From assembly GCA_035533295.1 (NCBI GenBank), contig DATLUA010000002.1, positions 11,323-75,322 on the forward strand: a DNA stretch of 64,000 bases, written 5' to 3'. This DNA comes from Elusimicrobiota bacterium. GTDB lineage: Bacteria > Elusimicrobiota > Elusimicrobia > UBA1565 > UBA9628. Under the pieces are notes generated by a model. The model was not told where the DNA came from and ran no database searches. It worked only from the letters and a program-made list of their open reading frames with translations. The position numbers and the translations under genes were made by a program. Positions 2,679 through 25,620 of the stretch are shown here, one piece after another (position 1 is the first letter of the stretch; each line of letters starts with the position of its first letter).

Positions 2679-3167
2679 TCAGCCCTTGTAGCTTCCTTTA
2701 AAGCTCTTCTCCGCTTCGCGCGCCGCGGCTTTTTTCTTGAGAGCCTCGCGACGGTCGGGCCCCTTCTTGCCGCGCGCCAAGCCCACCGCCACCTTGGCCC
2801 AGCCGCGTCGGAAGTACACTTCCAGCGGCACCAGCGTCAGTCCCTTGATCTGCAGGCTGCCGGTGATTTTGTCGATTTCCCGGCGGCGCAGCAAGAGCCG
2901 CCGCTTGCGCCTGGGATCGGCGTCCGTGTTTTGAGTCGCGTAGCGGTAGGGAGGAATGTAGAAATTAAAGAGATAGATATCGCCGCCTTCAGCCCGGCCG
3001 AAAGAGCCATCCAAGGACGCCTGCCCGCCGCGCAAAGCCTTGACCTCGGGGCCCTCCAAGCTGATGCCCGCCTCGTAGGTCTCCAGGATTTCGTAGAAAT
3101 GCCGCGCCTTGCGGTAGGTCGAGACCGAAATCTTGTCCGACTCTTTCTCGTCTTTGGAGGGCTTCAT
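2679..3167 (-). CDS. smpB: SsrA-binding protein SmpB
   Basis: MKPSKDEK..STYRKARHFYEILETYEAGISLEGPEVKALR.. is a canonical SmpB. The start was moved to the internal Met at 3167, giving 162 aa. Confidence 0.9.
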   Translation of the reverse strand: MKPSKDEKESDKISVSTYRKARHFYEILETYEAGISLEGPEVKALRGGQASLDGSFGRAEGGDIYLFNFYIPPYRYATQNTDADPRRKRRLLLRRREIDKITGSLQIKGLTLVPLEVYFRRGWAKVAVGLARGKKGPDRREALKKKAAAREAEKSFKGSYKG

Positions 3168-3265
3168 CGTAGCGCCACCAGGGCGCGCAGGCATTATAGC
3201 AAGTCGGGCAAAGCCGGGCCCTTTTTGATAGAATAACACGCCTTCGCGGAAATTCTCGCTTTAAC

Positions 3266-3349
3266 GGGCAGGTGGCGGAATTGGCAGACGCGCACGGCTC
3301 AGGACCGTGTGGCCGCAAGGCCTTGGGGGTTCAAGTCCCCCCTTGCCCA
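3266..3349 (+). tRNA. tRNA-Leu (anticodon CAG), type II long variable arm, CCA not encoded
   Basis: Manual fold: acceptor GGGCAGG/CTTGCCC, anticodon stem CACGG/CCGTG with loop CTCAGGA, variable arm TGGCCGCAAGGCC, T-arm GGGGG-TTCAAGT-CCCCC. Confidence 0.85.
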
Positions 3350-3353
3350 TTTT

Positions 3354-3788
3354 ATGCCGGAAACTCCGCAGTTCTTCAGTTGCCGCATCTACGGCGTGCT
3401 GCGCCGCGGCGGCAGGGTGCTTCTGACCCGCAGCCGCTTCATCGACCGCGAATTCGTCAATTTCCCCGGCGGCGGCATCGAGTTGGGCGAGCCTCCTTTA
3501 AGCGCCTTGAAGCGCGAGTATAAAGAGGAGACCGGGCTTCTGATCCGCCCCCTTAATATCCTCTACGCCAGCGAGGGGCTGCACGTCTCGACCCATCGCC
3601 CCATGCAGATCGTGAGCCTCTATTGGCTGGTGGAGGAAACGGGCGGGACGCTGCGCTCGGGCGGCAACGACGACGACGTCATCGACTTGTTCTGGGCCGA
3701 CGCGGACGCCATACCCACCGACGAGATGTTCCCTTCCGACAAGGAATTCGCCCTACGGCTGAAAAGCCTAACCGCGGCCGGGCTTTAA
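3354..3788 (+). CDS. NUDIX hydrolase
   Basis: Nudix box GGGIELGEPPLSALKREYKEETGL. The start was moved to the ATG at 3354, 5 nt after the tRNA, because the track ORF start overlaps the tRNA. Confidence 0.7.
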   Translation: MPETPQFFSCRIYGVLRRGGRVLLTRSRFIDREFVNFPGGGIELGEPPLSALKREYKEETGLLIRPLNILYASEGLHVSTHRPMQIVSLYWLVEETGGTLRSGGNDDDVIDLFWADADAIPTDEMFPSDKEFALRLKSLTAAGL

Positions 3789-4724
3789 TATCCGGCGCGC
3801 CACGGCCACCGGATCGGAGCGGTGTTCGAGCATGCGCTTCAAGTCATCCCGCGTGACGCGATCCAGCGCCCGCTGGTAAAGCCGGCGGGAAATATACAGG
3901 GACAGCTCTTCTTGATGCTGGACCGAAAGCCGCGCGCGGCCTTCGCCCGAGGACTTCAAATATTCCCAGTGGGACTCCAGGATTTTTCCCAGTTCGGGCA
4001 CGCCCTCTCCGGTCATGGCGGACGCGGCGACGACTGGCGGATCCCACGGCATTTTCTCGCGGCCGCGGCCCAAGGACAGCGCCGATCTCAAATCGCTGAC
4101 CGCCTTGTCCTTGCCGCCCAGGTCGGCCTTATTGACCACGAAAACGTCGCCGATTTCCATGGCCCCGGCCTTCATGGCCTGGATTTCGTCGCCCAGCTGC
4201 GGCGTGGTGACGTAGGCCACGGTGTCGGCGACCTTGGCGATGGTCACCTCGTCCTGGCCCGTGCCCACGGTCTCGACGATGATTTTGGAGAAGCTCGCCG
4301 CCTCCAAGGCATGGATGGCGCCGTAAATAGTCTGCGAGACGCCGCCCACCATGCCGCGCGTGCCCAGGGAGCGCATGAACACGCCCGGGTCCGAGACGTG
4401 CTCCTGAACGCGCAGCCGGTCGCCCAAGAACGCGCCGCCGGTCAGGGGGCTCGTGGGGTCCACGGCCAGGACGCCGACCTTGAGCCCTTGGCCGCGAAAA
4501 TGGGAAATGAGCCGTCCGCAGAGAGTCGATTTGCCGGCGCCCGGCGGGCCGCTCAAGCCTATTTTATGCGCCCGGCCCGATTCAGGGAAAAAGCGTTGCA
4601 GCAAAACGTCGGATTCCGGAGCCTCGTTGATAAGAAGGCTCAAGGCCCGGGCCAAGCTCCGGCGGTTTCCCGCGCGCACCGCGGCCGCGAGCGCCTCGGC
4701 GGAGGATTTACTTCCCGCGCGCAC
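3768..4724 (-). CDS. meaB: Methylmalonyl-CoA mutase-associated GTPase MeaB/ArgK (G3E family)
   Basis: [14 protein letters not shown]-loop, VVNKADL and overall MeaB similarity. The start was set at GTG 4724, 13 nt after the upstream B12-subunit stop; the first ATG would overlap the upstream gene by 118 nt. Confidence 0.8.
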
Positions 4725-5124
4725 GGGGCAAGTTCTCTTGCAGATAGGCGACGATGATGGAAAGCGGCGTTCCCGGGCCGAAAACCTGGTGAACGCCTTT
4801 TTTCTTGAGCGCCGGCACGTCCTCATCCGGTATGATGCCGCCGCCGAAAAGAAGCACGCCCTTCAGGCCTTTTTTCTTGAGCAGCCCGGCCACTTGCGGA
4901 AAAAGCGTCATGTGCGCGCCGGAGAGGAGCGAAAGCCCCACGGCGTCCACGTCCTCCTGCAGCGCGGCCTCCGCGATCATTTCGGGCGTCTGGCGGATGC
5001 CCGTGTAAATCACCTCGAAGCCCGCGTCGCGCAGCGCCCGCACGATGACCTTGGCGCCGCGGTCGTGGCCGTCCAACCCGGGCTTGGCGATCAAGACCCG
5101 ATAGGTTTTTTTCCCCGTCACCAT
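4708..5124 (-). CDS. Methylmalonyl-CoA mutase B12-binding subunit (stand-alone C-terminal cobalamin-binding domain)
   Basis: [37 protein letters not shown] is a classic DxHxxG B12-binding domain. Confidence 0.85.
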
Positions 5125-6203
5125 ACGCCCTCCTCGTTCGCCGCGATTTCGACAAAAGCCTTGGCCACGCGCGGATCGAAGCGCGCGCCCGAGCCCTGCT
5201 TGGCCAGCGCTACGGCGCGGTCGCGCACGCTTTCTCCGTCCGTGCCGCCGCTCATGCGCATCTCTTCGACCGCCTCGACCAGCCCCAGGATGCGGCCGCC
5301 CAGCGAAATGTCCTCGCCTTTCAGGCCCGCCGGGAATCCCCCGCCGTCGAAGCGTTCATGATGTTCCCGGATGGCGGGCAGGGCCCCCGAGAGAATCTTG
5401 ATGCCTTCGAGCATGCGCACCGAAAGCAGCGGATGGCTCTCCTCCGAAACGTTGGTCATCCCCATTTCGCCCAAAAGCCTGATGTTGCGGAAAGCCAAGT
5501 AGCCCACGTCGTGGAGCAGGCCCGCGTAGTAGAGCATCCGGTAGTCGTGCTCCCCGATGTCCAAGGCGCGGCCGATAGCGCAGCACAGCCGGGCCGCGCG
5601 GCCGGGGTGCCCCTGCATCCCGGGTTTGGAGGTCTCGATGAGCGACACCAGCAGCTCTAGGATATGGGAAAAGAAGTTCTTTTGATCCGAAATCATGCGG
5701 GTATTGGTGATGGCCACCGAGGCCAAGCCCGCCAGGCTTTCCAGGAGCTTCGCGTCGGTCTCGGAGTATTTTCCCCGGCGCTTGTTCAAGACCTCGATGA
5801 CGCCGACCAAGTCCCCCTTGAAGAACATAGGCACGCACAAGACCGAGCGCGTCTCGAAGCCCGAGGCCTTGTCGAAGCGGCCCGTGAAGCGCGCGTCGTT
5901 CTTCACGTCGTTGACCATTTCGATTTTTCGGTTCTGGGCCACCCAGCCGGCGATACCCTGGCCCAGGGGCAGCGTCATGGTCCGAATCGCGCGGGCCTTG
6001 TCTCCCGAGGCCACCCGGAAAAAGAGGTTTTTCCCGTCGTCGGTCAGGAGCATGATGGCGCTGGCCTCGGAGTCGAGGAGCTTTTCCGCCTCCGAGCCGA
6101 TTTGCCGCAGCAAGGAATCCAAATCCATGCTGGAATTGAAGCTCCCGGCGATGGAGAAAAGCTCCAGCGCCGTCCGCGTGTCGAGCGAAAGCTCCGCGGC
6201 CAT
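5118..6203 (-). CDS. GAF domain + HD-GYP-type phosphohydrolase (motif variant [11 protein letters not shown], i.e. GFP instead of GYP)
   Basis: N-terminal GAF-like region (..[21 protein letters not shown]..), then H..HD..HHE.FDG.GFP. Confidence 0.75.
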
Positions 6204-6204
6204 G

Positions 6205-7987
6205 CTATTCGACCCCCCCGAGGACTTCCCGCACCGTGGTCAGGCCCATGAGCACCTTGTGGAGGCCGTCCTGCACGATGGGCCGCATGCCTTCCTTGAG
6301 CGCCTGGTGGCGGATGGGGTCGGCCGCGATTTCCTTAAGGCAGAGCGCGCGCAGAGAGTCGGACATCGCCAAAAGCTCGTGCAGGCCGATGCGGCCGCGG
6401 AAGGCCAGCTTCTTGCAGGCCTCGCAGCCTTCGGCCGAGGGCCCGTAAATCTTCGCGTCGGATTTGATCTCCACGCCGTTTTCCGCGAAGACTTGCTTCT
6501 CCTCGGGCGTCGGATCGTGCGGAACCTTGCACTTCTCGCAGAGCTTGCGCGAGAGCCTCTGCGCCATGACGGCCTTCAAGGTGGTCGCCACCATGTAGGC
6601 GGGAATTCCCATCTCCACCAGGCGCGAGATGGCCGAGGGCGCGTCATTGGTGTGGATGGTGGAGAAAACCAAGTGGCCGGTCATGGCCGCCTCCATGGAG
6701 ATGTGCGCGGTCTCGCGGTCGCGGATTTCGCCGACCATGATGACGTCGGGGTCCAGGCGCAAAAACGAGCGCAGCGCGGTCGCGAAGTCGAAGAACTTGT
6801 CCTCGCCGAGCTTCAAGTCCGGATTGACGGGAACCTGGATGATGCCGTCCAAGTTGTATTCGACCGGATTCTCCGCGGTCAGAATTTTGATGTCCGGCCG
6901 GTTGATGTGGTTCAAGGCGGCGTAGAGCGTCGTGGATTTACCGGAGCCCGTCGGGCCGCAGAGCAGGATGAGGCCGAAGTTCTTCTTGCCGCCGATGCCC
7001 TTCAAGAGGCTCAAGAACTTTTCCTGAGTGTCCGGCAAAAAACCCATTTTGCCGATGTCCACCTGCGCGGCCTTGCGGTCCAATATACGCATGACGCAGG
7101 ACTCGCCGTAGACCGCGGGGACGATTTCGACGCGGAACTCGATGGGGTTTCCCTGCGCCAGAATCTGGATGCGCCCCGACTGCGGGATGCGGCGCTCGGT
7201 GATGTTCATCGAGTTGGTCATGATCTTAATCTTGGCCGCGATGGCGTTGCGGTAGCCCCAGGGAACGTTGAAGGGGCCCGGCACCAACTGGCCGTCGACC
7301 CGGTAGCGGACCAGAACCCGGGAGTTGCGCCCCGTGGGATCCTCTAAGGGCTCGATGTGGATGTCGGAGGCCTTCATGGACAGCGCGGTCAGGATGATGG
7401 CGTTGACGAGCTTTTCCACCTCGGGAGCGGAAGCGTCGACTTCCGTGATGTCGGTCTTAACCTGATCCGACAAGACATCGACGCCGGTCGACTGCCCCAA
7501 ATCGTCCTTTTTGGCGACTTCCTCGATGAGCCGGCTCACGGTCGCCGCGCCGCTGCGCCCGTAGACGTTGTCCAAGGCGTCGCTGATGTCCTGGGGCACG
7601 GCCAGCACGCCCTGGACCTGCAGGCCCGTGCGCAGCTCGATGTCCTCGCAGACGAAAAAATCCTTAGGATCGGCCATGGCCACGTAGAGGAGGTTTTCCT
7701 CCTTGGCGAACGGAACGGCCCCGTGGCGCCGGGCCGCGGATTCGGGGATGATCCGCGCGGCCTCAAAATCCATCTCCACCTTGGTCAGGTCCACGGCCTG
7801 GACCTTCCATTCCTCGGACAGCGCCGCCAGCATGTCGTGCTTGGACGCGGCGCCCGCGTCGACGATGGCCTGGATGAAAGGCTTTTTGTCCTTCCTGGCG
7901 GCCTCTTCGGCCTCGCGAATTTTCTCCGCGGGAACCAAGCCCTTGTCCAAGAGAACCTCGGCCGCGGTCCTGCGCCGCGCAAGCCCT

Positions 7988-7998
<11 letters not shown>
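6205..7998 (-). CDS. GspE/PilB-family secretion/pilus-assembly ATPase with N-terminal T2SE_Nter domain
   Basis: LLCGPTGSGKSTTLYAAL Walker A, VGEIRD, HLVFSTIHTNDA and a C-terminal Cys cluster CEKC..CEAC. Confidence 0.85.
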
Positions 7999-9603
<1,605 letters not shown>

Positions 9604-9607
<4 letters not shown>

Positions 9608-9945
9608 TGGCGGAACTCCAATTTTTCCCCTTTGGCGACGGCGCCGGACGAGGCGCCGGCGGCCAGTTCCAGCACGCTGTGGGCGCGAAAAACCCAGGGC
9701 GAGAGGCGCCACGGCTTTAAGTTTTCCAGCACTCGCACGACGCCAAAGTTAGAATCGAGAAACACCGCGTCGATGGCGAATTTCATGAAAAACGTGTGGA
9801 TCATGGGGCAGGGCACAATCCAGAGGCCCTCGGAACGGCCCAAGGAGTTCCGGCCCAGAAGGCCGCGCGAGCGCGTCCGCGGCGTGTCCGCCTGCGAGAC
9901 TTGCGACGCCACCACGGCGTTCCGGCTCACGTTGAACGCGATCAC
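9604..9945 (-). CDS. DUF192 (COG1430) family protein
   Basis: ..RGLLGR..EGL.IVPCPMIHTFFMKFAIDAVFLD..L.PWR..VLELAAG... A probable GTG start at 9945 overlaps the ksgA stop (GTGA); the longer track ORF would overlap ksgA by 120 nt. Confidence 0.6.
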
Positions 9946-16510: not shown

Positions 16511-17671
16511 TTAGGCCCGGGCCAGCGCCCGCTCGAAGTCCGCGAGCAAATCCTCGACCGCTTCCAAGCCCACCGAAACTCGGACAAGCCCGTCCGCGAT
16601 GCGAAGCTTTCTCCGCTCGGCCGCGGGCATGCCGGAATGCGAGGTGGTCGCGGGCCGCGTGACGAGCGACTCCACGCCCCCAAAGCTCGGCGCCACGACC
16701 GGCAGACGCACGGCGCGCATGAAGCGCTCGGCCTTCTTCAAGCCCCCTTTGAGCTCGAAGCTCAGCAGCCCGCCGAAGCCGTCGAAGAGTTCGCGCGCCC
16801 TTTGGTGCCGCGGGTGGCTGCGCAGCCCCGGGTAATTGACTCCGGCCACTTTAGGATGCCGCTCCAAAAACCGCGCGACTTCAATGGCGCTGGCGTTTTG
16901 GCGGACCATCCTCACTGCCAGCGTCTTGATGCCGCGTTCGAGCAGGAAGCACGCGTGCGGGTCGAGCGAGCCGCCCAGGTGATTGAGCCGATGCGTGGCC
17001 CTCTCGACCCAGGATCTGCGGCCGATGATCGCTCCAGCCACGATATCCGAATGGCCGTTCAAGTATTTGGTGGCGCTGTGCAGCGATAAATCAAAGCCCC
17101 ATTGCGCGGGCCTGAAGTTCATCGGGCTCGCCGAGGTGTTGTCGATGAGCGAGACGATGCCGCGCTCCTTGGCGAAGCGCGCGACGGCTTCCAAGTCCCC
17201 CACCTGCAGCAGCGGATTGGTCATGGTCTCGACGTAGATGGCCTTGGTGTTGCGCTTGATTTTCTTTTTCCACGAGGCCGGTTTGTCCGCATCGATGAAG
17301 TCGCAGGAGACGCCGAAGGACTTCAAATCCCTCGCGATGAACTCGTGCGTGCCGCCGTAAAGGCAGTCCTGCGCGAGCAGGTGATCTCCCGCCGAGAGCA
17401 CGGTCAAAAGCGCGGTGGAGATGGCGGCCATGCCGCTGCCGGCCACCAAGGCGTCCTGCGCGCCCTCCAAGGCCGCGAGCTTGCGGTGCAGGGCCTGGTG
17501 ATTGGGCGTGTTGTTGAGGCGGATGTACTTGAGATCGTGGTAGCTGGTCTCGCCGAAATACTCGTAGATGGAGGACTGGAAGACCGGCATGCTCACCGCG
17601 CCCAAAATCCTGGGGTGGATGTTCCCCGCGTGAATGACCTCGGTCTCCAAACGCCTGGAATTTTTCGCCAT
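16511..17671 (-). CDS. PLP-dependent Cys/Met-metabolism enzyme (cystathionine gamma-synthase / O-acylhomoserine sulfhydrylase / Met gamma-lyase family)
   Basis: MAKNSRRLETEVIHAG.. and the HSATKYLNGHSD lysine motif. The track ORF carries a 117-aa Arg/Gly-rich N-terminal extension judged non-coding, so the start was set at ATG 17671. Confidence 0.85.
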   Translation of the reverse strand: MAKNSRRLETEVIHAGNIHPRILGAVSMPVFQSSIYEYFGETSYHDLKYIRLNNTPNHQALHRKLAALEGAQDALVAGSGMAAISTALLTVLSAGDHLLAQDCLYGGTHEFIARDLKSFGVSCDFIDADKPASWKKKIKRNTKAIYVETMTNPLLQVGDLEAVARFAKERGIVSLIDNTSASPMNFRPAQWGFDLSLHSATKYLNGHSDIVAGAIIGRRSWVERATHRLNHLGGSLDPHACFLLERGIKTLAVRMVRQNASAIEVARFLERHPKVAGVNYPGLRSHPRHQRARELFDGFGGLLSFELKGGLKKAERFMRAVRLPVVAPSFGGVESLVTRPATTSHSGMPAAERRKLRIADGLVRVSVGLEAVEDLLADFERALARA

Positions 17672-18168
17672 GGAATGACTCCTGTGTCCGCTCGTCAAGC
17701 CAGTCTTAGAGGCTGGCGGGGACGGCAGACCCGAAATCAAGATTTCCAGATCCCGCCCTTTGTTCCGCCGCCCGGCAAAATCGATTTTATCCCTTCGTTT
17801 CGGGCAGAGCGCCCCTTCGCCCTGAGTCGGATTGCCAATGGCGAGTGGGTGATTCAGGACCTTTCGGCCCCGCCGCCTGAGGCAGTCAGCCCGGCCGCCA
17901 GCGCACCCGCGCCGCAGGGCAAGGCTCTGGCCCCTCTGATTGACGCCATGCTCTTGGCAGGGAATATGACCATGCGCGGCATCGTCCGCGAGCTCCAACG
18001 CAAGGCGAGTTCCGTCTGCCACGGCCGCGATCTTCGGGCCAACGTTCGCGCCAGAATATACTGGCTAAAAAAGAGAGGCTGTAGCCCGTCGTTGCTTTTA
18101 TCCCTATAAATCCATCGCAAATATACCATGCGGATGATGGCTGGGCCTAGTAATTAACGATTTATGAT

Positions 18169-18197
18169 TTGCAAATCGTGAATCTATGCTGTATACT
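18169..18197 (+). promoter_or_regulatory. Sigma70-like promoter: TTGCAA, 17-nt spacer, TATACT
   Basis: AT-rich divergent intergenic region. The -10 element lies 6 nt upstream of ATG 18204, which suggests a leaderless transcript. Confidence 0.4.
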
Positions 18198-18203
18198 GTG
18201 GGC

Positions 18204-18743
18204 ATGAGACCCCAGCATGGCATCAAGCCGCAGGATGTGCTCATTCTGCTCAAGATCGCGTGTTGGCGAGACCGAGAATGGCGCTCGGTTGATCTTGCCC
18301 ATGAACTTCAGATCTCCCCGGCCGAGGTGAGCATGGCCCTCGAGCGGGCGCGGCGCGTGGGCTTTCTCGACCCCAAAAAGCGCAGCGTGATGAAGGCGCC
18401 ATTTCTGGAGTTTTTGCTCCATGCGGTCAAGTACGTCTTTCCCGCGGAGCCCGGTCCCCTCTGTCGCGGCATTCCCACGGCCCACTCCGCGCCGCCGTTG
18501 GCCAAGCGCATCGTGTCCGAGGAAAGCGATCAATACGTTTGGCCGCATGACGACGGCAAGGTGCGGGGTCAGGCTATCGCGCCGTTGTATGAGACGGCAC
18601 CCGCCGCCGCGCGGCAGGATGAGAAGCTTTATGAGTTCCTATCGCTCATAGACGCTCTCCGCGTCGGCCGCGCCAGGGAGCGAAACATCGCGGCCCAGGA
18701 AATCGAAAATCGGCTTAGCGAGCTCGTCCTTGAGAACAAGTAA
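18204..18743 (+). CDS. Winged-helix DNA-binding protein, possible AbiEi-like antitoxin/regulator
   Basis: N-terminal wHTH-like region (DVLILLKIACWRDREWRSVDLAHELQISPAEVSMALERARRVGFLD). Overlaps the downstream nucleotidyltransferase gene by 14 nt. An alternative start is at 18186. Confidence 0.45.
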   Translation: MRPQHGIKPQDVLILLKIACWRDREWRSVDLAHELQISPAEVSMALERARRVGFLDPKKRSVMKAPFLEFLLHAVKYVFPAEPGPLCRGIPTAHSAPPLAKRIVSEESDQYVWPHDDGKVRGQAIAPLYETAPAAARQDEKLYEFLSLIDALRVGRARERNIAAQEIENRLSELVLENK

Positions 18744-19422
18744 GAACCTGGACATGCTGTCCGTGGTCGCCCGCGGCCTTCAGGACCTCAAGGATCAAGT
18801 GGTCTTCGTCGGCGGTGCCACGGTCGATTTGTACGTCACCGATCCCGGAGGAGAACCGTTGCGCCCCACCGATGACGTGGACTGCGTGATCGGGATCACA
18901 AGCCGCGTCGCTTACCGGACTCTGGAGGAAAAACTCAGAGCCCTGAAATTTTCCCATCCGCTCGATGAGGCTCGGCCACCCATTTGCCGCTGGAAATTCT
19001 CCGGGATCTCCGTGGACGTAATGCCCACCGACGAAGGCGTATTGGGTTTTAGCAACCGCTGGTATCCCGACGGCATCGCGCACGCCGAAAGTCGGGTTCT
19101 GCCGGACGGCCAAACCGTCGCGATTTTCTCTCTTCCCTACTTCCTGGCCTCCAAGATCGAAGCATTCCTGGGGCGGGGCAAAGATGACTTTTACGGTAGT
19201 TCGGATCTGGAGGACATCGTGACGCTGATTGACCGGGCCGAAGACCTTCGCGAGAAGGTTCTGGCCGCGCCGAAGGATGTCCAGAACTATATCGGAGAGA
19301 AGTTCGGCTCTTTCCTGGGCAATGACCTGTTCGTGCAGAGCGTGGCCGGGCATCTCGACGCCGGTGCAGGGCCAGGCCGGGTGGAACGGGTTCTGGGACT
19401 CATGCGCGAGCTCGCAAAATGA
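18730..19422 (+). CDS. Nucleotidyltransferase, AbiEii/DUF1814-like (candidate type IV TA or abortive-infection toxin)
   Basis: VVFVGGATVDLYVTDPGGEPLRPTDDVDCVI matches the GG.A..L....R.T.D.D NTase signature of the AbiEii family. Confidence 0.5.
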   Translation: MRTSKNLDMLSVVARGLQDLKDQVVFVGGATVDLYVTDPGGEPLRPTDDVDCVIGITSRVAYRTLEEKLRALKFSHPLDEARPPICRWKFSGISVDVMPTDEGVLGFSNRWYPDGIAHAESRVLPDGQTVAIFSLPYFLASKIEAFLGRGKDDFYGSSDLEDIVTLIDRAEDLREKVLAAPKDVQNYIGEKFGSFLGNDLFVQSVAGHLDAGAGPGRVERVLGLMRELAK

Positions 19423-19443
19423 TTTCCACCGCTCCCGGTACTT

Positions 19444-19818
19444 TTAACGGGACACCGCCGCCTTGGTCCAGTCGAACACGATGGCCGGGTTGGTCGGATT
19501 GTAGGCCGCGTCGCACATCGAGGCGTTGATGAACGCGGTGTGCTCGTTCTTCGTGATGCCGTAGCCTTCATGCACGTGGCCGAAGATATGGTACTTCGGC
19601 TTGATCCTCTCCACGGCGGCCAGGAGGTCCGCGCAGCCGACGCGCTCTGTCTTTCCGTAGGAGGGGATGTCGTCGCCATGCCCGAGAGGCGGGCCATGAG
19701 TCAGAAGGATAGGGGAGCCGACGTCCGTCATGTCGCCGGCGTGGATGAAGACGTCGCCCTCCGGAATGGGCAGCCGATCGTGCATCGTGTGGGTGTCCGA
19801 GACGCAAACGAACCGCAT
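19444..19818 (-). CDS. Small metallophosphoesterase (calcineurin-like)
   Basis: MRFVCVSDTH.., ..VFIHAGDMT.., ..GHVHE motifs. Confidence 0.65.
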   Translation of the reverse strand: MRFVCVSDTHTMHDRLPIPEGDVFIHAGDMTDVGSPILLTHGPPLGHGDDIPSYGKTERVGCADLLAAVERIKPKYHIFGHVHEGYGITKNEHTAFINASMCDAAYNPTNPAIVFDWTKAAVSR

Positions 19819-19832
19819 AATCTGCCGCCGTT

Positions 19833-21269
19833 CTACCGTCTGTCCTTGATAATGTTCATCTTCCGGAAAAATCCGCTTCTGTGCTTGCGCTCGAACTCCT
19901 CGGGGCTCATGGATTCAAGGAGCCCCAGGTTGTTGCGGGCCACCTCATAATCCGGGTTTAACTTCAAGGCGGCCTTCAGCATGGCCAGGGCCTCCTCGCG
20001 ATTTCCCGACATTACGTAAGCCGTGGCCATGTTGCCCAAGACCCGATACGCCTCCGGGTGGTCCTTGACCATGGGATAGACTTTTTGGAGAAGATCGAGA
20101 GCGGTCTGAGTCTGCCCAGCCTTGAGATGATCCGTGGCCTGGTTGACCAAGCCCATCGCCTGAGACTCCGCTTCCCCTGCGGCCATTGGCGTCACTTGAA
20201 TCTCGTAGCCAACTTCCTGTTGAGGGTTCCCAAGAGCACGGCGCTCCTCTAGAATGGCTTGCCGAGGGCTCTTGCCGCCCAGTTCCTTCTGCGGCGCGGC
20301 AAGCCACTCACGCGTGATCTCACGCGCCTTGGAAGTAAAATCACCGCTTTCCATTTCTTCATTAGTGAGGCGGCCCATGACGAATCGCTGCAGGTCCGCG
20401 AGGAGCGAGCGTTCCTTGGGTCCGGGCTTGGGTGTGTCTTCGGCCAGCGTTAGATTCCACATGGCTTGAAGAAGGGGAGCGACTTCCTTGGCCGCCTCCG
20501 CGGATGGGGCCTTGCCGAGGACGACCTTAGAAAGCGGATGCTCCTTGGCGGCCTTCTTATGGGCCGCGAGGATGTCTTCCTCGATCTGAGCGACAGTGAT
20601 ATCCGCCACGCGCCAGCGTTGCAGGAGCGAAGCGAGCCGCGCGCGGACGCGGTGCAGGCCCTCCTTCTCCCATTCCACCGGAGGGACGAACAATCCAAGG
20701 ACGAACCGGTGGCTGATGGGTTCGTCCTTAAGTGCTTCGCCGCGAGACTGCATGAGACGCTCCATGTGGTAGCCGGCCTCGTCAGGAAGCCGCGCGACAA
20801 AACTTGACAACGCCCAGTGGTCCTGAAAGCGGAAGAGCCGGGCAATCAGGAACTGACCCTCCCTTCCATCCTCCGATCCCTTCGCGTCGAGGACACGACA
20901 GGTTTCCCCGCGCGGGATGGGCGTCAAGTCCAGCCACTCGCCCGCCTTGCGCGCGGTCAGTTTGAATATGCCGAAGCGACTGTCTTCTTTGAAGCCTTGA
21001 TAGGCGGCCGCCTCGGTCTTGTCGAAGCGTCGCTGGTTGGTCTTGATGAATAGATCGAGAGGAGTCAAGCCGCACCGCGTGAGCCGGCGCTCAAGGAGGA
21101 ACCAATCCTTAAACAGCGCGCCGATCAGATCGCGGCCGTCTTTTGGAATACGGCTCGGGCTGATGAAGAACTCCTCCATGGCCTCCGGCTCCTCGACCGC
21201 GACCATGCCCTCGCGTTGAGCCCAGCCCGTGAATTTATTGAAGTACTTATGCGCCTTGGACTGCGTCAT
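19833..21269 (-). CDS. Hypothetical protein with C-terminal TPR repeats
   Basis: 478-aa ORF. The C-terminal 100 aa show TPR-like A..Y..LG / ALKLNPDY motifs; no other recognised domain. Confidence 0.55.
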   Translation of the reverse strand: MTQSKAHKYFNKFTGWAQREGMVAVEEPEAMEEFFISPSRIPKDGRDLIGALFKDWFLLERRLTRCGLTPLDLFIKTNQRRFDKTEAAAYQGFKEDSRFGIFKLTARKAGEWLDLTPIPRGETCRVLDAKGSEDGREGQFLIARLFRFQDHWALSSFVARLPDEAGYHMERLMQSRGEALKDEPISHRFVLGLFVPPVEWEKEGLHRVRARLASLLQRWRVADITVAQIEEDILAAHKKAAKEHPLSKVVLGKAPSAEAAKEVAPLLQAMWNLTLAEDTPKPGPKERSLLADLQRFVMGRLTNEEMESGDFTSKAREITREWLAAPQKELGGKSPRQAILEERRALGNPQQEVGYEIQVTPMAAGEAESQAMGLVNQATDHLKAGQTQTALDLLQKVYPMVKDHPEAYRVLGNMATAYVMSGNREEALAMLKAALKLNPDYEVARNNLGLLESMSPEEFERKHRSGFFRKMNIIKDRR

Positions 21270-21286
21270 GTCCTGCTTCCCATGGC

Positions 21287-22363
21287 CTATGCCTTGCCGC
21301 GTTTTTTTCGCGGACCGGGACGTTTCTTGCGCTCGGTCTCCAGCGCTTTGGCCGATGTCCGGAGATCCTCAAGATACCGGGCCGCGGCAGAGGCCTCCGC
21401 TTCCAGCCGCCGGCGCTCGGCGAAGGCGTCGTATTGCTCGTTGGCCCAGGAAAGCACCTCTTCATGGGTCACTTTGCCGGAATCGGGAAGCACCGGCAGC
21501 TCCGTCTGCTGGAGAAACTGGTCCAGGAACGCGGTCCAGTCCCGCATCTGGATGTCCTGGCGGCGCTGGGCCCGGAACTCGGCCTGATCCAGGAACATGA
21601 CCACGATCCGGTTGAGCGTGTCGATTTCCTTCTCCGTCAGATAGTTCTTCGCCGTCGCCACGTCGCGCTTGAGCACCCGGCTGCCGCTCCAAGATGTCAG
21701 GCCCATGTTGGCTTTGCCGGCGTCGGCTCTCCTGCGGACGATCTCGGCAGCGGTCATGCCGGCCGCCGCGTAGTGCATCTTGTTCTGCATCGCGGCGAAG
21801 AAGGCCTGCGTCTCCTCCTGCCCCTCGACGTAGTCCATGGCCATGGCGAATATCTCCCGGATGCGCTGATAAACGCGGGCTTCGCTGGCCCGTATCTCGC
21901 GGATGCGGACCAGCAGTTCGTCAAAATAGTCGGCCAGCCTATCGTGGCCCTTGAGACGCTCGTCATCCAAGGTGAAGCCCTTGATGAGGTACTCCCGCAG
22001 CCGTTCGGTCGCCCATTGCCGGAACTGCACCCCGCGCGGCGAGCGGACCCGATAGCCGACGGCTAGGATCATGTCCAGGTTATAGAGCTTGATTTGGCGC
22101 CGGACGGCGCGCCCGCCTTCCTGGCGAACTTGTAAGTGTTCCTTACAAGTTGCCGCCTCCGACAGCTCGCCGTCCTTGTAGATTTCTCCGATGTGGATGG
22201 TGACGTTCTGCGGCGTCGTTTGGAACAGCTCCGCCATGAGCGCCTGGGACAGCCAAACCGTGCCGCCCTCCAGCCTGACCTGGATATGGCTCTGCCCATC
22301 CTCGGCCTGGTAGATGATGATTTCCGACTTGGCCGGTTTCTCCGGCGAGTTTTCCGTCATCAT
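21287..22363 (-). CDS. RhuM-family protein (virulence-associated / mobile-element-associated)
   Basis: IIIYQAEDGQSHIQVRLEGGTVWLSQALMAELFQTT..YNLDMILAVGYRVRSPRGVQFRQWATERLREYLIKGF matches the RhuM family closely. The start was set at MMTEN, with ATGA overlap to the upstream stop. Confidence 0.8.
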   Translation of the reverse strand: MMTENSPEKPAKSEIIIYQAEDGQSHIQVRLEGGTVWLSQALMAELFQTTPQNVTIHIGEIYKDGELSEAATCKEHLQVRQEGGRAVRRQIKLYNLDMILAVGYRVRSPRGVQFRQWATERLREYLIKGFTLDDERLKGHDRLADYFDELLVRIREIRASEARVYQRIREIFAMAMDYVEGQEETQAFFAAMQNKMHYAAAGMTAAEIVRRRADAGKANMGLTSWSGSRVLKRDVATAKNYLTEKEIDTLNRIVVMFLDQAEFRAQRRQDIQMRDWTAFLDQFLQQTELPVLPDSGKVTHEEVLSWANEQYDAFAERRRLEAEASAAARYLEDLRTSAKALETERKKRPGPRKKRGKA

Positions 22364-22980
22364 TTTTTGCGGCCAAGGGCCTTGTTGGCCGCGGCCAGAT
22401 CGAAGGCCTTCGGGTCGTAATCCCCGCCGACCCAATCGACCATCTCGTCGTGCTGCTCGTGCTTGGGATCGCGCAGCGCGGCGAGCAAATCCTCGCAGCC
22501 GCCGATGCCGCCGCAGTCCTCCGGGGGGCAAGCCCCTGCGCCGGCCAAACATTCGGGCCCTTTGAATGCGCCCGTGGCCGGCGTGATGGACTCCACCTTG
22601 ATTTCATGGCCCCAGCTGTCGCCCATGTCGTACTCGTAGAAAAACTTCGCGCCAGTTTTGCGCGCAATGTCCCAAAGCACGAACTTCCGCTCGTCCTCGA
22701 CGTCGTCCCAGTCCGGCGTCCGAGGGGCGATGCGCGTCTTGCCGACATGGAACATGTGCAGATGGCAATCGCTCCAGCCCATGGCGTACTGGATGACCCG
22801 ATGGAGGCTGCCCAGGCTCGCGTCTCCCGGCACGAGGACCCGCCGCCAGACCGGCGGCTCCAGGCCGACGAGAGTGATCTTGAGCTGGTAGACCTTGGCC
22901 GCGGCCTGGTCCAGCTCTTTTTTGACCTCATTGGGGACCCAGCCCCTATTCTTAAGTTGGTCAAGAGACTTTGTATTCAT
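22360..22980 (-). CDS. Plasmid pRiA4b ORF-3-like family protein
   Basis: VYQLKITLVGLEPPVWRRVLVPGDASLGSLHRVIQYAMGWSDCHLHMF..YDMGDSWGHEIKVE signature. Confidence 0.7.
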   Translation of the reverse strand: MNTKSLDQLKNRGWVPNEVKKELDQAAAKVYQLKITLVGLEPPVWRRVLVPGDASLGSLHRVIQYAMGWSDCHLHMFHVGKTRIAPRTPDWDDVEDERKFVLWDIARKTGAKFFYEYDMGDSWGHEIKVESITPATGAFKGPECLAGAGACPPEDCGGIGGCEDLLAALRDPKHEQHDEMVDWVGGDYDPKAFDLAAANKALGRKK

Positions 22981-22996
22981 AGGCTGGATTCTCCAC

Positions 22997-23083
22997 CCAA
23001 AAACCGAAACGGCGCGTTTTATCGCACCATTTCGGCTTTTGGAACGCCGGGTTCAACAATTAAGAGCTGGCGGGGCCGAGGGA
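22997..23083. repeat. Direct repeat copy A (about 85% identical to 25425..25515): partial tRNA-Asp 3' end (about 17 nt) plus degenerate terminator hairpin; att-like island boundary
   Basis: 42-nt exact core ccgaaacggcgcgttttatcgcaccatttcggcttttggaac shared with copy B; a tggcggggYcgaSgg tail matches the tRNA-Asp 3' end. Confidence 0.75.
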
Positions 23084-23348
23084 ATCGATTTACCGACGGC
23101 CTAAATCCCGCCCCTGTTCCAGCGCCAGAAAAAGCATATATTTTCCAAGCTTTCGCGCTCAACTGGTCCGTGACGTGGGGCTGCATCATGAACGGGGAGC
23201 GCGTGGTGTTGGAGACTGCCCCTTCGCCGGACCGAAAAACCATGGACTTCGACATCCCGGAGTTCAAATGCCGTCGTGCTATCGAAAGAACGGCGGGAGC
23301 AATACCAATAAGTCTCTGCCCTGACGGGGCGGCGCTCGGAGAATTTCT

Positions 23349-23690
23349 CTAAGCGGCAGCCAGCCGTTGAATGAGCGGCAAGGCCTGTTTGGCTTTGCTT
23401 TCGGCGATGCAGAACGGGACGAACTTCAGACCGAGAGCTTCCGCCATCTTCGCCACGCGATCCATGGACGCGGCCCGTAAGCCGCCGCCTTTAAGATCGC
23501 GGGATATCGCGCTCTTTTGAGTTCCCATGGCCTTCGCGAGGTCGGAGTAACTCCAATGCTTTTTTTCCAAGGCGTTGAGCATCTGGACTTCCAGCTTGAA
23601 GAGCTCGTAGCTCTCCTCATGACGCTTGCGGTAGGCGGGGTCCTCCATTTTCCGCGCCAAGAGCCCCTTGGCTTTCCCTTTAGTTTTCAT
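23349..23690 (-). CDS. XRE-type HTH antitoxin (HigA-like)
   Basis: ..WSYSDLAKAMGTQKSAISRDLKGGG..ASMDRVAKMAEALGLKF HTH. Lies downstream of the toxin gene and overlaps it by 11 nt. Confidence 0.6.
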   Translation of the reverse strand: MKTKGKAKGLLARKMEDPAYRKRHEESYELFKLEVQMLNALEKKHWSYSDLAKAMGTQKSAISRDLKGGGLRAASMDRVAKMAEALGLKFVPFCIAESKAKQALPLIQRLAAA

Positions 23691-24102
23691 AGTAGGTTCC
23701 CTCCTGGACGCGCTTCAAATAGTCGTGCCTATAACGCACCGCGACTTTCAAATGCTCCAAATCGGCCTTGGTCATCTGTTGAGAATGCTTGTGATAGGCG
23801 TTGGTGATGATCACCTTGGCCCCGGCCGTCGTGAAGTTGAAAAATCTCTCGTCCCGCGGCTTCAGCGCATAAATCTTGTTGGGGCGGTCCTCGATCCGGT
23901 AAAGCGTTTTCGGAAGCAAGGAGCCCGGCTTCGTTTCGCACAAGTATTGGATCATGTCGTCGAACCGGTCCTGGTCCATTTCGGCCAATCCAGCGTAATA
24001 TTCCCGAGCCGGCATTTTGCTCTCTATCGTGTAGAACCACTCCGCCGTCAAATAACGCCCCGGATGGATCAGGACGTCATCGTAGTCGGGATATTTGGCC
24101 AT
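23680..24102 (-). CDS. HigB/Gp49-like RelE-superfamily toxin (COG4679-like)
   Basis: ..LYRIEDRPNKIYALKPRDERFFNFTTAGAKVIITNAYHKHSQQMTKADLEHLKVA resembles the ..LLhgF.KKtqkTP..EI..A C-terminal signature. The start was set at MAKYPDYDD. Confidence 0.55.
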   Translation of the reverse strand: MAKYPDYDDVLIHPGRYLTAEWFYTIESKMPAREYYAGLAEMDQDRFDDMIQYLCETKPGSLLPKTLYRIEDRPNKIYALKPRDERFFNFTTAGAKVIITNAYHKHSQQMTKADLEHLKVAVRYRHDYLKRVQEGTYYEN

Positions 24103-24270
24103 TTCCGCTACTCGTAAGTTAACATATAAGTGAACGACTGTCAAGAGCCAACCGTTGCCCCAGAAAATCAACCTTGTCCACGACGTCCAGGGGCGGCGAA
24201 AGGCTAGGAAGGCCGCCGGTCGCGTTTTTGATGGGCGTACTTGGGATGAGAGGCCCCAGTTGGATTCGGC

Positions 24271-24951
24271 CTAACCATTCAAATCCAAGGCAGGTTTTAA
24301 GTTCCCCACCCGGAGATCGTTTAGAGCGCCCATGCGTTGTTTATGATCCTCCGCACTGAGAAAATCTTCTCTTAGAAGTAGGCGCAGAAAGTCTTCTACA
24401 GGGGTATCGTTCTTCCTGTTGTTGCATTGGCGGCAGGCCGCCACGACGTTTTTATAGCTGTTATTGCCTTCGGGTCTTGAAACTACATGTTCGATGACGT
24501 AGTTTTGAGGATTCAGCTTCCTAAGACAGTAGAAGCACTGATCATTTTCACGACTCAAAATAGCCTGACGATTTTGCGGGAGAAAAAAATCTATTTCCTC
24601 CAATACCGGTGGATTGCTTGCCGGCGATTTCGCCAGGATAACACCAGGTATTTCTGCGGGCAGCTTTAATCGAATTTTTCTTCCTTCGCGGGTTGAATCC
24701 AGAATTTCTATACAGCCCTTGGATTGCAGGGATTGCAGTTTTTCATAAGCAGTACTCTCAGACATTGGCTTGCCCTTTTCGCCAATTCCGCATGCCATAC
24801 GTTTTCTGGCCGATTTGAATCCGATTACAACTTCATCCAGACCAATCAGGCAGCTATGACGAAATATGTACAGATAAATTGCCTGCTCATAGGTGTCGAG
24901 CCTGGGGGCCAGAAAATCCTGAAACTCCTCAAGTATCTTTTTCAGTTCCAT
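24271..24951 (-). CDS. HNH endonuclease
   Basis: CFYCLRKL..NYVIEHVVSRPEGNNSYKNVVAACRQCNNRKNDTP HNH motif. It sits in markedly lower-GC DNA. Confidence 0.75.
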   Translation of the reverse strand: MELKKILEEFQDFLAPRLDTYEQAIYLYIFRHSCLIGLDEVVIGFKSARKRMACGIGEKGKPMSESTAYEKLQSLQSKGCIEILDSTREGRKIRLKLPAEIPGVILAKSPASNPPVLEEIDFFLPQNRQAILSRENDQCFYCLRKLNPQNYVIEHVVSRPEGNNSYKNVVAACRQCNNRKNDTPVEDFLRLLLREDFLSAEDHKQRMGALNDLRVGNLKPALDLNG

Positions 24952-25072
24952 CCGTTAATGATAACATTTTATAAAACTTCCCTTAGAAGGTCGAACGCTC
25001 GACGGATCGCTTCTTAATTCCGCTTGATGTCTTGCCTGAGAGAAGGTAATTCCTCTATAAAGGAGGTGAAAC

Positions 25073-25366
25073 ATGGGCACGCGAAAAATTGCGATCAGCC
25101 TCGATATTCCTATCTGTTGGAATCTGATCGCCAACGGCGAGAGGATCATCGAGCAAGCGGGACCGGACTCGGTCGACGTCGAGGTTCGCGAAGGTTCCAT
25201 CGACGGCGAGTCATGGCTTCAAGCGCTGTCGCGGCTATTGGATGAAGCGGAGGCGGAACTACGTCGCGTCGGGCGTCGCAGGCGTCGAGCAGTAGCAGAT
25301 TTCGATTCCCGTCGTTCACTCAACCGACGGCATCAAAAAACCACCGTGAAGCGAACAGGGCAGTAG
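25073..25366 (+). CDS. Hypothetical small protein (97 aa)
   Basis: Strong RBS AAGGAGGTG 5 nt upstream of the ATG (aaggaggtgaaacATG). No recognisable domain. Confidence 0.4.
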   Translation: MGTRKIAISLDIPICWNLIANGERIIEQAGPDSVDVEVREGSIDGESWLQALSRLLDEAEAELRRVGRRRRRAVADFDSRRSLNRRHQKTTVKRTGQ

Positions 25367-25424
25367 AGTAGACGAAAAACTGGGTTCGAATCGACATGCG
25401 CCGCGAAAATCACCGTCGTAGATG

Positions 25425-25515
25425 CCAAAAAAGCCGAAACGGCGCGTTTTATCGCACCATTTCGGCTTTTGGAACAACGGATTAAACTTATAAGAGCTGG
25501 CGGGGTCGACGGGAT
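25425..25515. repeat. Direct repeat copy B: tRNA-Asp 3' end plus its rho-independent terminator (AAAAGCCGAAA..TTTCGGCTTTTTT read on the minus strand)
   Basis: See copy A. On the minus strand the hairpin is followed by a T-run immediately downstream of the tRNA. Confidence 0.75.
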
Positions 25516-25575
25516 TTGAACCCGCGATCTCTGCCTTGACAGGGCAGCGTGTTAGGCCAGCTACACCACGACCCC
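25498..25575 (-). tRNA. tRNA-Asp (anticodon GTC), CCA encoded
   Basis: Reverse complement GGGGTCGTGGTGTAGCTGGCCTAACACGCTGCCCTGTCAAGGCAGAGATCGCGGGTTCAAATCCCGTCGACCCCGCCA folds with anticodon loop CTGTCAA. Confidence 0.85.
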
Positions 25576-25620
25576 AAAATTCGGGAAGCGCGCTATTCTA
25601 ACATTTTTCCTTTTTGATTG

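Follow-up and report, generated by a model that had tools for sequence, protein, structure and literature searches.

An accessory segment at tRNA-Asp in an Elusimicrobiota genome, read as a tandem array of two integrase-less elements

Background

Cis-mobilisable elements (CIMEs), as known from ICESt1 and ICESt3 of Streptococcus thermophilus, are derivatives of integrative elements that are flanked by attachment (att) sites and have no integrase. New integrations occur at the intact tRNA, so that in a stack of such units the tRNA-proximal one is the youngest. A comparable rearrangement of an integration target is found with the cryptic prophage e14 of E. coli in icd/icdC, where the gene receives a new 3' end from the element and its original one persists as a displaced copy of diverged sequence (PMC13626634). 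Here, a 7.8-kb accessory segment is described (positions 17684-25497) that lies downstream of tRNA-Asp on contig DATLUA010000002.1, from a metagenome-assembled genome (MAG) of an Elusimicrobiota bacterium; "the window" below refers to the whole stretch of 64 kb that was analysed (GC content ~63%), in which all positions are counted. From the tRNA inwards, the segment consists of islet B (2.4 kb; 25497-23086), att copy 2, island A (5.3 kb; 22998-17726) and att copy 3, followed by a Cys/Met enzyme dependent on pyridoxal phosphate (PLP), here called MetC. It is most readily understood as two members of a single family of integrative elements, both without an integrase and stacked in tandem, whose target is the 3' part of tRNA-Asp, a reading to which we assign a probability of about 0.72.

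Results

Homologue searches with MetC yielded three relatives, all of them MAG contigs (L085, L087 and L088), with protein identities of 95%, 88% and 85% among them and flanking DNA that is 80-92% identical to the window. In all three, blastn homology stops at 25495-25497, i.e. at the 3' end of the tRNA, and resumes at 17671-17683, i.e. at the start of MetC. L087 (an NCBI Elusimicrobia MAG) presents an empty site, with only 36 nt between tRNA-Asp and MetC, whereas the closest relative, L088, carries an aspartate kinase gene at this spot (336-1655) and L085 carries five unrelated genes (epimerase, photolyase, MerR-B12, CbiX and lipocalin; 5184-9933); the cargo of L088 and L085 has no counterpart elsewhere in the window. 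When the LMF1-like protein of the right flank was used as query on genome contigs, only Acidobacteriota-type relatives of at most 59% identity were retrieved, none of them adjacent to tRNA-Asp. An earlier, sequence-only reading of this DNA had proposed an accessory or defence-type cluster between housekeeping blocks that ends at a tRNA gene. The gene calls, together with the public calls on the identical contig, place the genes it listed where it had put them, the gene identities on both sides agree with housekeeping blocks, and the end at the tRNA coincides with the homology breakpoints and with three direct copies of the tRNA end. Its extent (18100-25600), on the other hand, has to be replaced by 17684-25497, as given by those breakpoints. 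Conserved presence and synteny of the block across the lineage were not found, the three relatives lacking the whole of it.

The copies of the tRNA end, which are positioned at 25498-25515, 23068-23085 and 17713-17725 and all lie on the minus strand, are direct repeats at the junctions, and as such are a signature of integration into a tRNA gene. A 9-mer within them (CCCCGCCAG) has just three occurrences in the 64 kb, one at each junction and all on the minus strand; it was by this 9-mer and by eye that the degenerate copies were found, since a 25-nt tRNA-end pattern with three mismatches allowed had missed them. Copies 1 and 2 form an 87-nt direct repeat (87% identical, at a spacing of 2430) that consists of the last 18 nt of the tRNA and 69 nt that include a hairpin of 18-21 bp with a U-run behind it. 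The folding energy of the hairpin is -32.5 kcal/mol (z=-6.6) in copy 1 and -37.3 kcal/mol (z=-5.5) in copy 2, while a 39-nt pattern of its core is exact in both. Copy 3 (CCGTCCCCGCCAG, just before MetC) is instead followed by a spacer resembling the one that separates the tRNA from MetC in the relatives. The hairpin arm precedes both modules, copy 2 ending 20 nt before the start codon of PRiA4_ORF3, and because no such hairpin is present downstream of the tRNA in L085, L087 or L088, the arm belongs to the inserted elements. It is likely that the strong hairpin, which follows each of these att copies, stops read-through from the tRNA; the Rfam scan returned nothing besides the tRNA itself. Compared with the tRNA-Asp of the three relatives, that of the window shows three differences, all from the anticodon stem onward and including one compensatory pair (C-G to U-A), which fits a 3' part supplied by the integrating element.

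Through the 90% cluster of the 140-aa toxin candidate of islet B (Table 1), a sister element was reached in other Elusimicrobiota. The pair formed by this protein and a helix-turn-helix (HTH) protein is also present, 90% identical, in L169 (GCA_027343145.1), L171 (GCA_021792465.1) and L172. In these MAGs, a segment (3.9 kb in L169 and L171) lies between perfect 53-nt direct repeats (4809-4861 and 8768-8820 in L169), which correspond to tRNA-Asp from the anticodon stem to the 3' end, and its order is hairpin arm, small open reading frame (ORF), a gene for an 860-aa UvrD/PD-(D/E)XK protein, and the toxin-antitoxin (TA) pair. Homology with the window spans 25550-25130 and 24149-23349, with a DNA identity of 76% in the first stretch, 92% in the arm (relative to copy 2) and 81% in the TA pair. 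The arm of L169 matches copy 2 over 88 nt with a nearly identical spacer, whereas the spacer of copy 1 differs. Between the two homologous stretches, the 980 bp of the window at 24150-25129 (GC 46.8%), which hold the HNH gene, stand exactly where L169 has its helicase-nuclease gene; no repeats were found at the edges of this swapped segment. Immediately outside the left repeat of L169 lie a gene for a 542-aa tyrosine integrase (3027-4655; PF00589 and HTH_17) and a HicB gene, and a PF00589 integrase adjoins the sister element in both L169 and L171.

Conservation between the two elements extends to their smaller parts. The 97-aa ORF next to the hairpin arm, which has no Pfam or PHROG match, shares 51% identity over 61 aa with its counterpart in L169 (E=2e-18). 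A promoter-like sequence (TTGACA..TATATG) is conserved upstream of the toxin gene in the window and in L169, as part of a conserved stretch at 24110-24150 on the minus strand (7960-8000 in L169) that reads CTTGACAG..GTTCA..TATATGTTAAC and is situated at the right edge of the swapped cargo slot. In the pair, the toxin gene precedes the HTH gene, with an overlap of 11 nt. The 140-aa protein itself stays below the threshold of PF05973 (Gp49; E=0.016, 15.7 bits against a cut-off of 23.9), yet 45 of 60 homologues match this family (best 3.9e-19), so that it can be addressed as a Gp49/HigB-like candidate at the family level only. Together, the matches of the homologues, the overlapping Xre-type HTH gene and the conserved promoter-like site make the HigBA-like label of the sequence-only reading a reasonable one, with the reservation that the toxin of the window is itself sub-threshold. 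Judging from family membership, the TA pair likely stabilises islet B.

The gene set (Table 1) was derived from frame-specific GC content and scans with Pfam, PADLOC, NCBIfam and PHROGs, combined with the public calls on the identical contig (protein records HVA65368-HVA65375; locus tags including VNK24_00400-00435).

Table 1. Positions of the genes, att copies and tRNA of the segment in the window
Feature	Position	Strand	Basis or remark
tRNA-Asp(GTC), integration target	25498-25575	-	ARAGORN; Rfam tRNA 67.8 bits
att copy 1: last 18 nt of tRNA-Asp and 69-nt element arm	25429-25515	-	direct repeat
Small conserved element gene, 97 aa, adjoining the hairpin arm	25073-25366	+	called in public assemblies
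Winged-helix and HNH nuclease, 226 aa	24271-24951	-	HNH domain; compositionally alien cargo
Gp49/HigB-like (RelE/ParE superfamily) toxin candidate, 140 aa	23680-24102	-	homologues match PF05973
Xre-type HTH antitoxin candidate, 113 aa	23349-23690	-	PF01381 HTH_3 2.9e-07; phrog_1373 transcriptional regulator 4.5e-13
att copy 2, junction of islet B and island A	22999-23085	-	degenerate tRNA-Asp 3' end and second hairpin arm
PRiA4_ORF3, 206 aa	22360-22980	-	PF07929 3.4e-63
RhuM, 358 aa	21287-22363	-	PF13310 3.9e-107; PADLOC PDC-S05 3e-144
Tetratricopeptide repeat (TPR) protein, 478 aa	19833-21269	-	lineage-restricted N-terminal domain (~360 aa) and C-terminal TPRs
MPPED2-type metallophosphoesterase, 124 aa, internally deleted	19444-19818	-	PDC-S10 1.5e-42, in two stretches
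PDC-M21B, nucleotidyltransferase fold, 222-230 aa	18754-19422	+	PADLOC 2.1e-61
PDC-M21A, winged-HTH protein, 179-185 aa	18186-18743	+	PADLOC 8.4e-48
att copy 3, left boundary of the segment	17713-17760	-	decayed tRNA-Asp 3' end, then ancestral tRNA-to-MetC spacer

Island A opens with PRiA4_ORF3, the first gene of a tightly packed string on the minus strand, whose stop overlaps the start of RhuM by 4 nt. Relatives of PRiA4_ORF3 occur on 2832 of 72,556 plasmids, of which 1910 are conjugative. RhuM covers PF13310 at full length (profile positions 1-249 of 252; 357.7 bits against a cut-off of 33.7), and a search of viral contigs with it gave nothing. With a representative of PDC-S05, the PADLOC model that it matches, T7 and T5 plated about 1000-fold less on E. 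coli, and protection there was seen against T7, T5 and T4 (PMC12881386). The two PDC-M21 genes are adjacent and match both models near full length, and a promoter-like site lies at 18168-18197, at PDC-M21A. Going by family membership, RhuM and the PDC-M21 pair likely act as anti-phage or abortive-infection genes. The AbiEi/AbiEii-like label of the earlier reading could not be kept for the latter pair beyond a sub-threshold resemblance: PDC-M21B reaches PF08843 (AbiEii) at E=0.015 (15.7 bits against a cut-off of 22.5), while PDC-M21A gave no AbiEi family of Pfam up to E=5 but only weak generic winged-HTH matches. A similarly weak match of PDC-M21B to the "nucleotidyltransferase-like protein" 5UVD (E=0.037) brings out VGGA...R-P-T-D-D-V-D, a motif of the Pol-beta nucleotidyltransferase type.

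The metallophosphoesterase had correctly been noted as present, but rather than being a small enzyme of its own it is a deletion derivative of an MPPED2-type one. Its residues 2-37 align to MPPED2 61-96 and its residues 18-117 to 192-290 (E=1.7e-37), so that ~115 internal residues are missing, including the equivalents of MPPED2 97-191. A complete calcineurin-like set comprises DxH, GD, GNH(D/E), H and GHxH; here DTH, GD, THGPP and GHVH are visible and GNH(D/E), as placed by what is known of the fold, appears to have been lost. The protein is a singleton 90% cluster. It is probably inactive, and the gene looks like a decaying, pseudogene-like deletion derivative.

The TPR protein has ~29 full-length homologues, all from Elusimicrobiota or among unnamed metagenome proteins. 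These homologues stand alone in unrelated, often defence-rich contexts, for which reason the idea of a conserved PRiA4-RhuM-TPR-phosphoesterase system was dropped. Its predicted model is confident (pLDDT 82) but has structural neighbours for the TPR part only. Among the invariant residues of the N-terminal 360 aa, aromatic and structural ones predominate, and a catalytic set is not evident. One short motif of the protein, W..APQKEL.GK[ST]P, weakly matches the toxin-binding domain Xre_MbcA_ParS_C (E=0.01). Beside one homologue (L092, 11846-20941), a row of defence-like genes is found, for an SNF2 helicase, NOV_C, a D12 methyltransferase, a NERD-UvrD helicase, an AAA_22 ATPase and RadC. As for the proposal that all of these genes are typical cargo of mobile islands, four of them match PADLOC models of defence candidates, RhuM/PDC-S05 has experimental support (PMC12881386) and PRiA4_ORF3 is found on plasmids, but the TPR protein is an Elusimicrobiota-only orphan that is not documented as island cargo, and there is no mobility gene.

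In base composition and codon usage, tested against 30 background genes, the HNH gene and the 97-aa ORF are the only alien ones (z of -4 to -7), the former with z=-5.7 for GC at third codon positions (GC3) and z=-4.3 for an index resembling the codon adaptation index. The TA genes combine a low total GC content with a host-like GC3, and all genes of island A lie within ~2 standard deviations of the background. The contrast in GC content that had been noted between the left and right parts stands only in part: island A is host-like, and on the right those two genes alone deviate strongly. Host-like GC content may also simply reflect donors from the same phylum; the TPR family is restricted to Elusimicrobiota, and other Elusimicrobiota have the TA pair at 90% identity. 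An older acquisition of the left part, which had been deduced from its GC content, fits the topology, the more degenerate distal att copy and the decayed phosphoesterase; a host-like composition is to be expected with Elusimicrobiota donors as well.

On the left, the segment is flanked by housekeeping genes for MutY-like and LiaF-like proteins and MetC, and on the right by those for LMF1-like, GT21, acid phosphatase, peptidase S51, acyl-CoA dehydrogenase and isoleucyl-tRNA synthetase proteins. The interval from att copy 3 to PDC-M21A may contain a further small ORF, absent from the gene calls, or a pseudogene, at 17849-18109 on the plus strand (at most ~86 aa from a GTG at 17849; GC3 0.71; no Pfam match). 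The LMF1-like gene, which encodes 489 aa in the window, is split beside the tRNA-Asp of L087 into ORFs of 104 aa and 186 aa with an internal gap (372-1283), either as a pseudogene or through an error in the MAG assembly.

Discussion

Following these results, the segment would have been assembled in two steps. Island A would have come first, bringing its hairpin arm, PRiA4_ORF3, RhuM, the TPR protein, the phosphoesterase and the PDC-M21 pair, and supplying a replacement 3' end to the tRNA, by which the original end (copy 3) would have been pushed against MetC. Islet B would then have entered the restored tRNA with its own hairpin arm, the small ORF, a variable cargo slot and the Gp49-like/Xre TA pair, pushing the junction of island A (copy 2) inward; the slot is filled by a helicase-nuclease gene in the sister element and by the low-GC winged-helix-HNH gene in the window. 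Both units are read as members of one family because island A begins with the same arm as islet B and the element of L169. The enzyme responsible was most likely a tyrosine integrase like the one beside the sister element, which would have been lost from these copies or would have acted in trans.

Several observations weigh against this account. Neither a homologue of the L169 integrase in the 64-kb window (tblastn) nor any recombinase among the called island genes and two intergenic translations (Pfam, NCBIfam, PADLOC, PHROGs) was found. The sister element does not provide a clean template either: positions 4783-4861 of L169 form a chimeric pseudo-tRNA, in which a Glu-like 5' half precedes a tRNA-Asp sequence of anticodon arm and 3' part, and this chimera, which ARAGORN does not call, is the left att repeat, with the integrase on its outer side. 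In the window, copy 3 is short and degenerate, with 13 nt being clear and ~35-45 nt arguable, and the distal arms of the two units are only weakly alike (a score of 24, versus 17.6 +/- 2.3 for shuffles), a similarity that was set aside as too weak to use. Because copies 1 and 2 are just 87% identical, recent excision by an integrase is doubtful, and neither an excised circle nor a variant lacking only islet B was observed; Logan contigs break at the repeats because both copies share an identical repeat core.

A rival explanation is that the winged-helix-HNH nuclease itself brought in islet B, or at least the 980-bp segment with its own gene: as a free-standing homing-type or structure-specific enzyme, it would cut near terminator hairpins or gene 3' ends, after which repair would copy the cassette in together with a diverged replacement copy of the target. 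The protein of the window has an HNH domain with the conserved catalytic His/Asn and a CxxC...CxxC zinc site, and its large chromosomal family (1327 hits at E<1e-5) has features that would suit such a role, with 62-69% identity across phyla (Elusimicrobiota, Polyangiaceae, Vicinamibacterales, Binataceae and Opitutaceae), all catalytic and Zn-binding residues kept, and a GC content below that of the flanks in 31 of 36 loci (on average 5.9 points lower). In 7 of 48 loci the gene lies between direct repeats of at least 50 bits, compared to 8 of 466 control positions (~10-fold enriched), and no repeat-bracketed cassette that was examined contains an integrase. In L112, a 1.8-kb cassette lies between 54-nt repeats (417-470 and 2188-2241) that consist of a tRNA 3' half (T-loop GGTTCAATTCC, CCA) and a palindromic hairpin. 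Inside are two HNH genes, of which one has homing-endonuclease repeats (PF18780) and the other belongs to the winged-helix-HNH family, and no integrase. In L153, a cassette of HNH and Phd/ParE genes lies between two copies (2234-2446 and 3704-3916; 90% identical) of the 3'-terminal 213 nt of a convergent PLP-enzyme gene. Against this stands that the repeats and arms of the window occur in the integrase-linked sister element without an HNH gene, another gene rather than an empty site being found at its position, and because of this the repeats are att sites of a sister-type element and the HNH gene is cargo; the finding of arms, small ORF and TA pair beside an integrase but without HNH is what tells against the nuclease. 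The 980-bp segment also lacks repeats at its edges, bracketing repeats are lacking at the majority of those HNH loci whose flanks are complete, and integrases equally make repeat-flanked duplications of 3' ends (PMC13626634). Unlike known free-standing homing endonucleases, moreover, the family has no full-length relatives in 2.9 million viral contigs (IMG/VR), 50,697 phage genomes (INPHARED) or 72,556 plasmids (PLSDB). Insertion by the nuclease is therefore regarded as unlikely, and the same scepticism applies to the broader proposition that winged-helix-HNH proteins form autonomous mini-cassettes which insert beside terminator hairpins or gene 3' ends, often with imperfect target duplications of 25-213 nt, and recruit interchangeable TA modules. 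About a quarter to a third of 35 loci carry TA families less than 1 kb downstream of the HNH gene, and ~6 of 32 have them upstream, fractions that weaken a strict HNH-TA operon and indicate a TA-rich neighbourhood rather than a fixed pairing; no conserved non-coding flanks were found around the HNH genes, and phmmer of the toxin candidate against the ORFs neighbouring them gave nothing. If true, such cassettes would amount to a nuclease-driven, integrase-independent seeding of small accessory islets in bacterial chromosomes.

The absence of an integrase would also be accounted for if islet B had entered by homologous (Campbell) recombination of the RecA type, without any site-specific recombinase, circular or linear DNA of a related strain having crossed over in the hairpin core shared with the arm of island A. 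A perfectly identical core amid diverged sequence is indeed the pattern that a single crossover in a shared core leaves, and a copy 2 arm that is nearly identical to that of L169, with a copy 1 spacer that is not, shows that homeologous arms circulate in the phylum. However, the repeat includes the 3' end of the tRNA, the sister element has a perfect 53-nt tRNA repeat beside an integrase, and the differences in the tRNA begin at the anticodon stem, which fits replacement at an att core better than crossing over within the hairpin. Site-specific recombination explains these features more simply, and entry through the hairpin core is considered improbable. More improbable still is that the block is ancestral and was lost or replaced independently in the three relatives, the repeats being due to chance or local duplications. 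The host-like GC3 and codon usage of the island A genes and the confinement of the TPR family to Elusimicrobiota would agree with an ancestral block, and the relatives examined are only three, all MAG contigs. Yet three independent and precise losses at the tRNA 3' end and the MetC start would be needed, the empty site of L087 has an intact 36-nt spacer resembling the sequence after att copy 3, and the three tRNA-end copies lie exactly at the junctions; in addition, TPR homologues elsewhere are found in unrelated contexts and the TA module occupies a different locus in other MAGs. Integration of two related elements at tRNA-Asp is therefore retained as the preferred reading.

Specialists will find nothing surprising in the segment, which is an ordinary kind of accessory island. 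Its interest is in marking the tRNA-Asp/MetC interval as a recombination hotspot in this Elusimicrobiota lineage, in delineating, for a phylum whose mobile elements have barely been described, a family of small integrative elements specific to tRNA-Asp, some with and some without an integrase, and in providing natural contexts for three PADLOC candidate systems, one of which (RhuM/PDC-S05) recently gained experimental support. The cargo of L088 and L085 shows that metabolic genes, too, are exchanged at this hotspot, beyond those for defence. The winged-helix-HNH family is the sole part with a wider potential; nothing was found on its function.

Compared with described systems, the single modules are familiar ones with deviations of their own. 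The PDC-M21, PDC-S05 and PDC-S10 genes give strong matches to all four hidden Markov models of PADLOC and are known here from their sequences, the PDC-S10 homologue differing from the norm by its internal deletion; they are strung together with PRiA4_ORF3 and the TPR protein in a combination that is not seen around TPR homologues elsewhere. The PDC-M21 pair resembles AbiE in having the winged-HTH gene first and an abutting or overlapping gene of the Pol-beta nucleotidyltransferase fold second, with a motif like R-x-T-x-D-x-D and a weak PF08843 match over most of the domain, but since that match is below the gathering threshold and AbiEi is not matched, the pair is better filed as PDC-M21. The TA pair shares the toxin-first operon and the overlapping Xre-type HTH gene with HigBA and Gp49-HTH modules, whereas its toxin candidate is, at 140 aa, longer than a typical HigB by an extra ~45 aa at the N-terminus and does not itself reach the Pfam threshold.

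As to the mode of insertion, e14 likewise replaces the 3' end of its target, displaces a diverged pseudo-copy to the far side and is bracketed by imperfect direct repeats. It is, however, a 15-kb prophage remnant with its own integrase that excises on SOS induction (PMC13626634), whereas the units of the window measure 2.4 and 5.3 kb, target a tRNA and are devoid of an integrase. Relative to CIMEs, the units have no conjugation or mobilisation genes and their host is an uncultured member of the Elusimicrobiota; with att copies that have diverged to 87% identity and, at the far end, to a 13-nt remnant, they may be fixed remnants rather than mobilisable elements. With CIMEs and tandem tRNA-linked islands they nevertheless have in common that a tRNA gene is the site of insertion, at its 3' end, with the end repeated directly at every junction, that two units are stacked and share an internal att copy, that the cargo consists of defence and TA genes, and that, as in CIMEs, the units have no integrase of their own while a related element has one.

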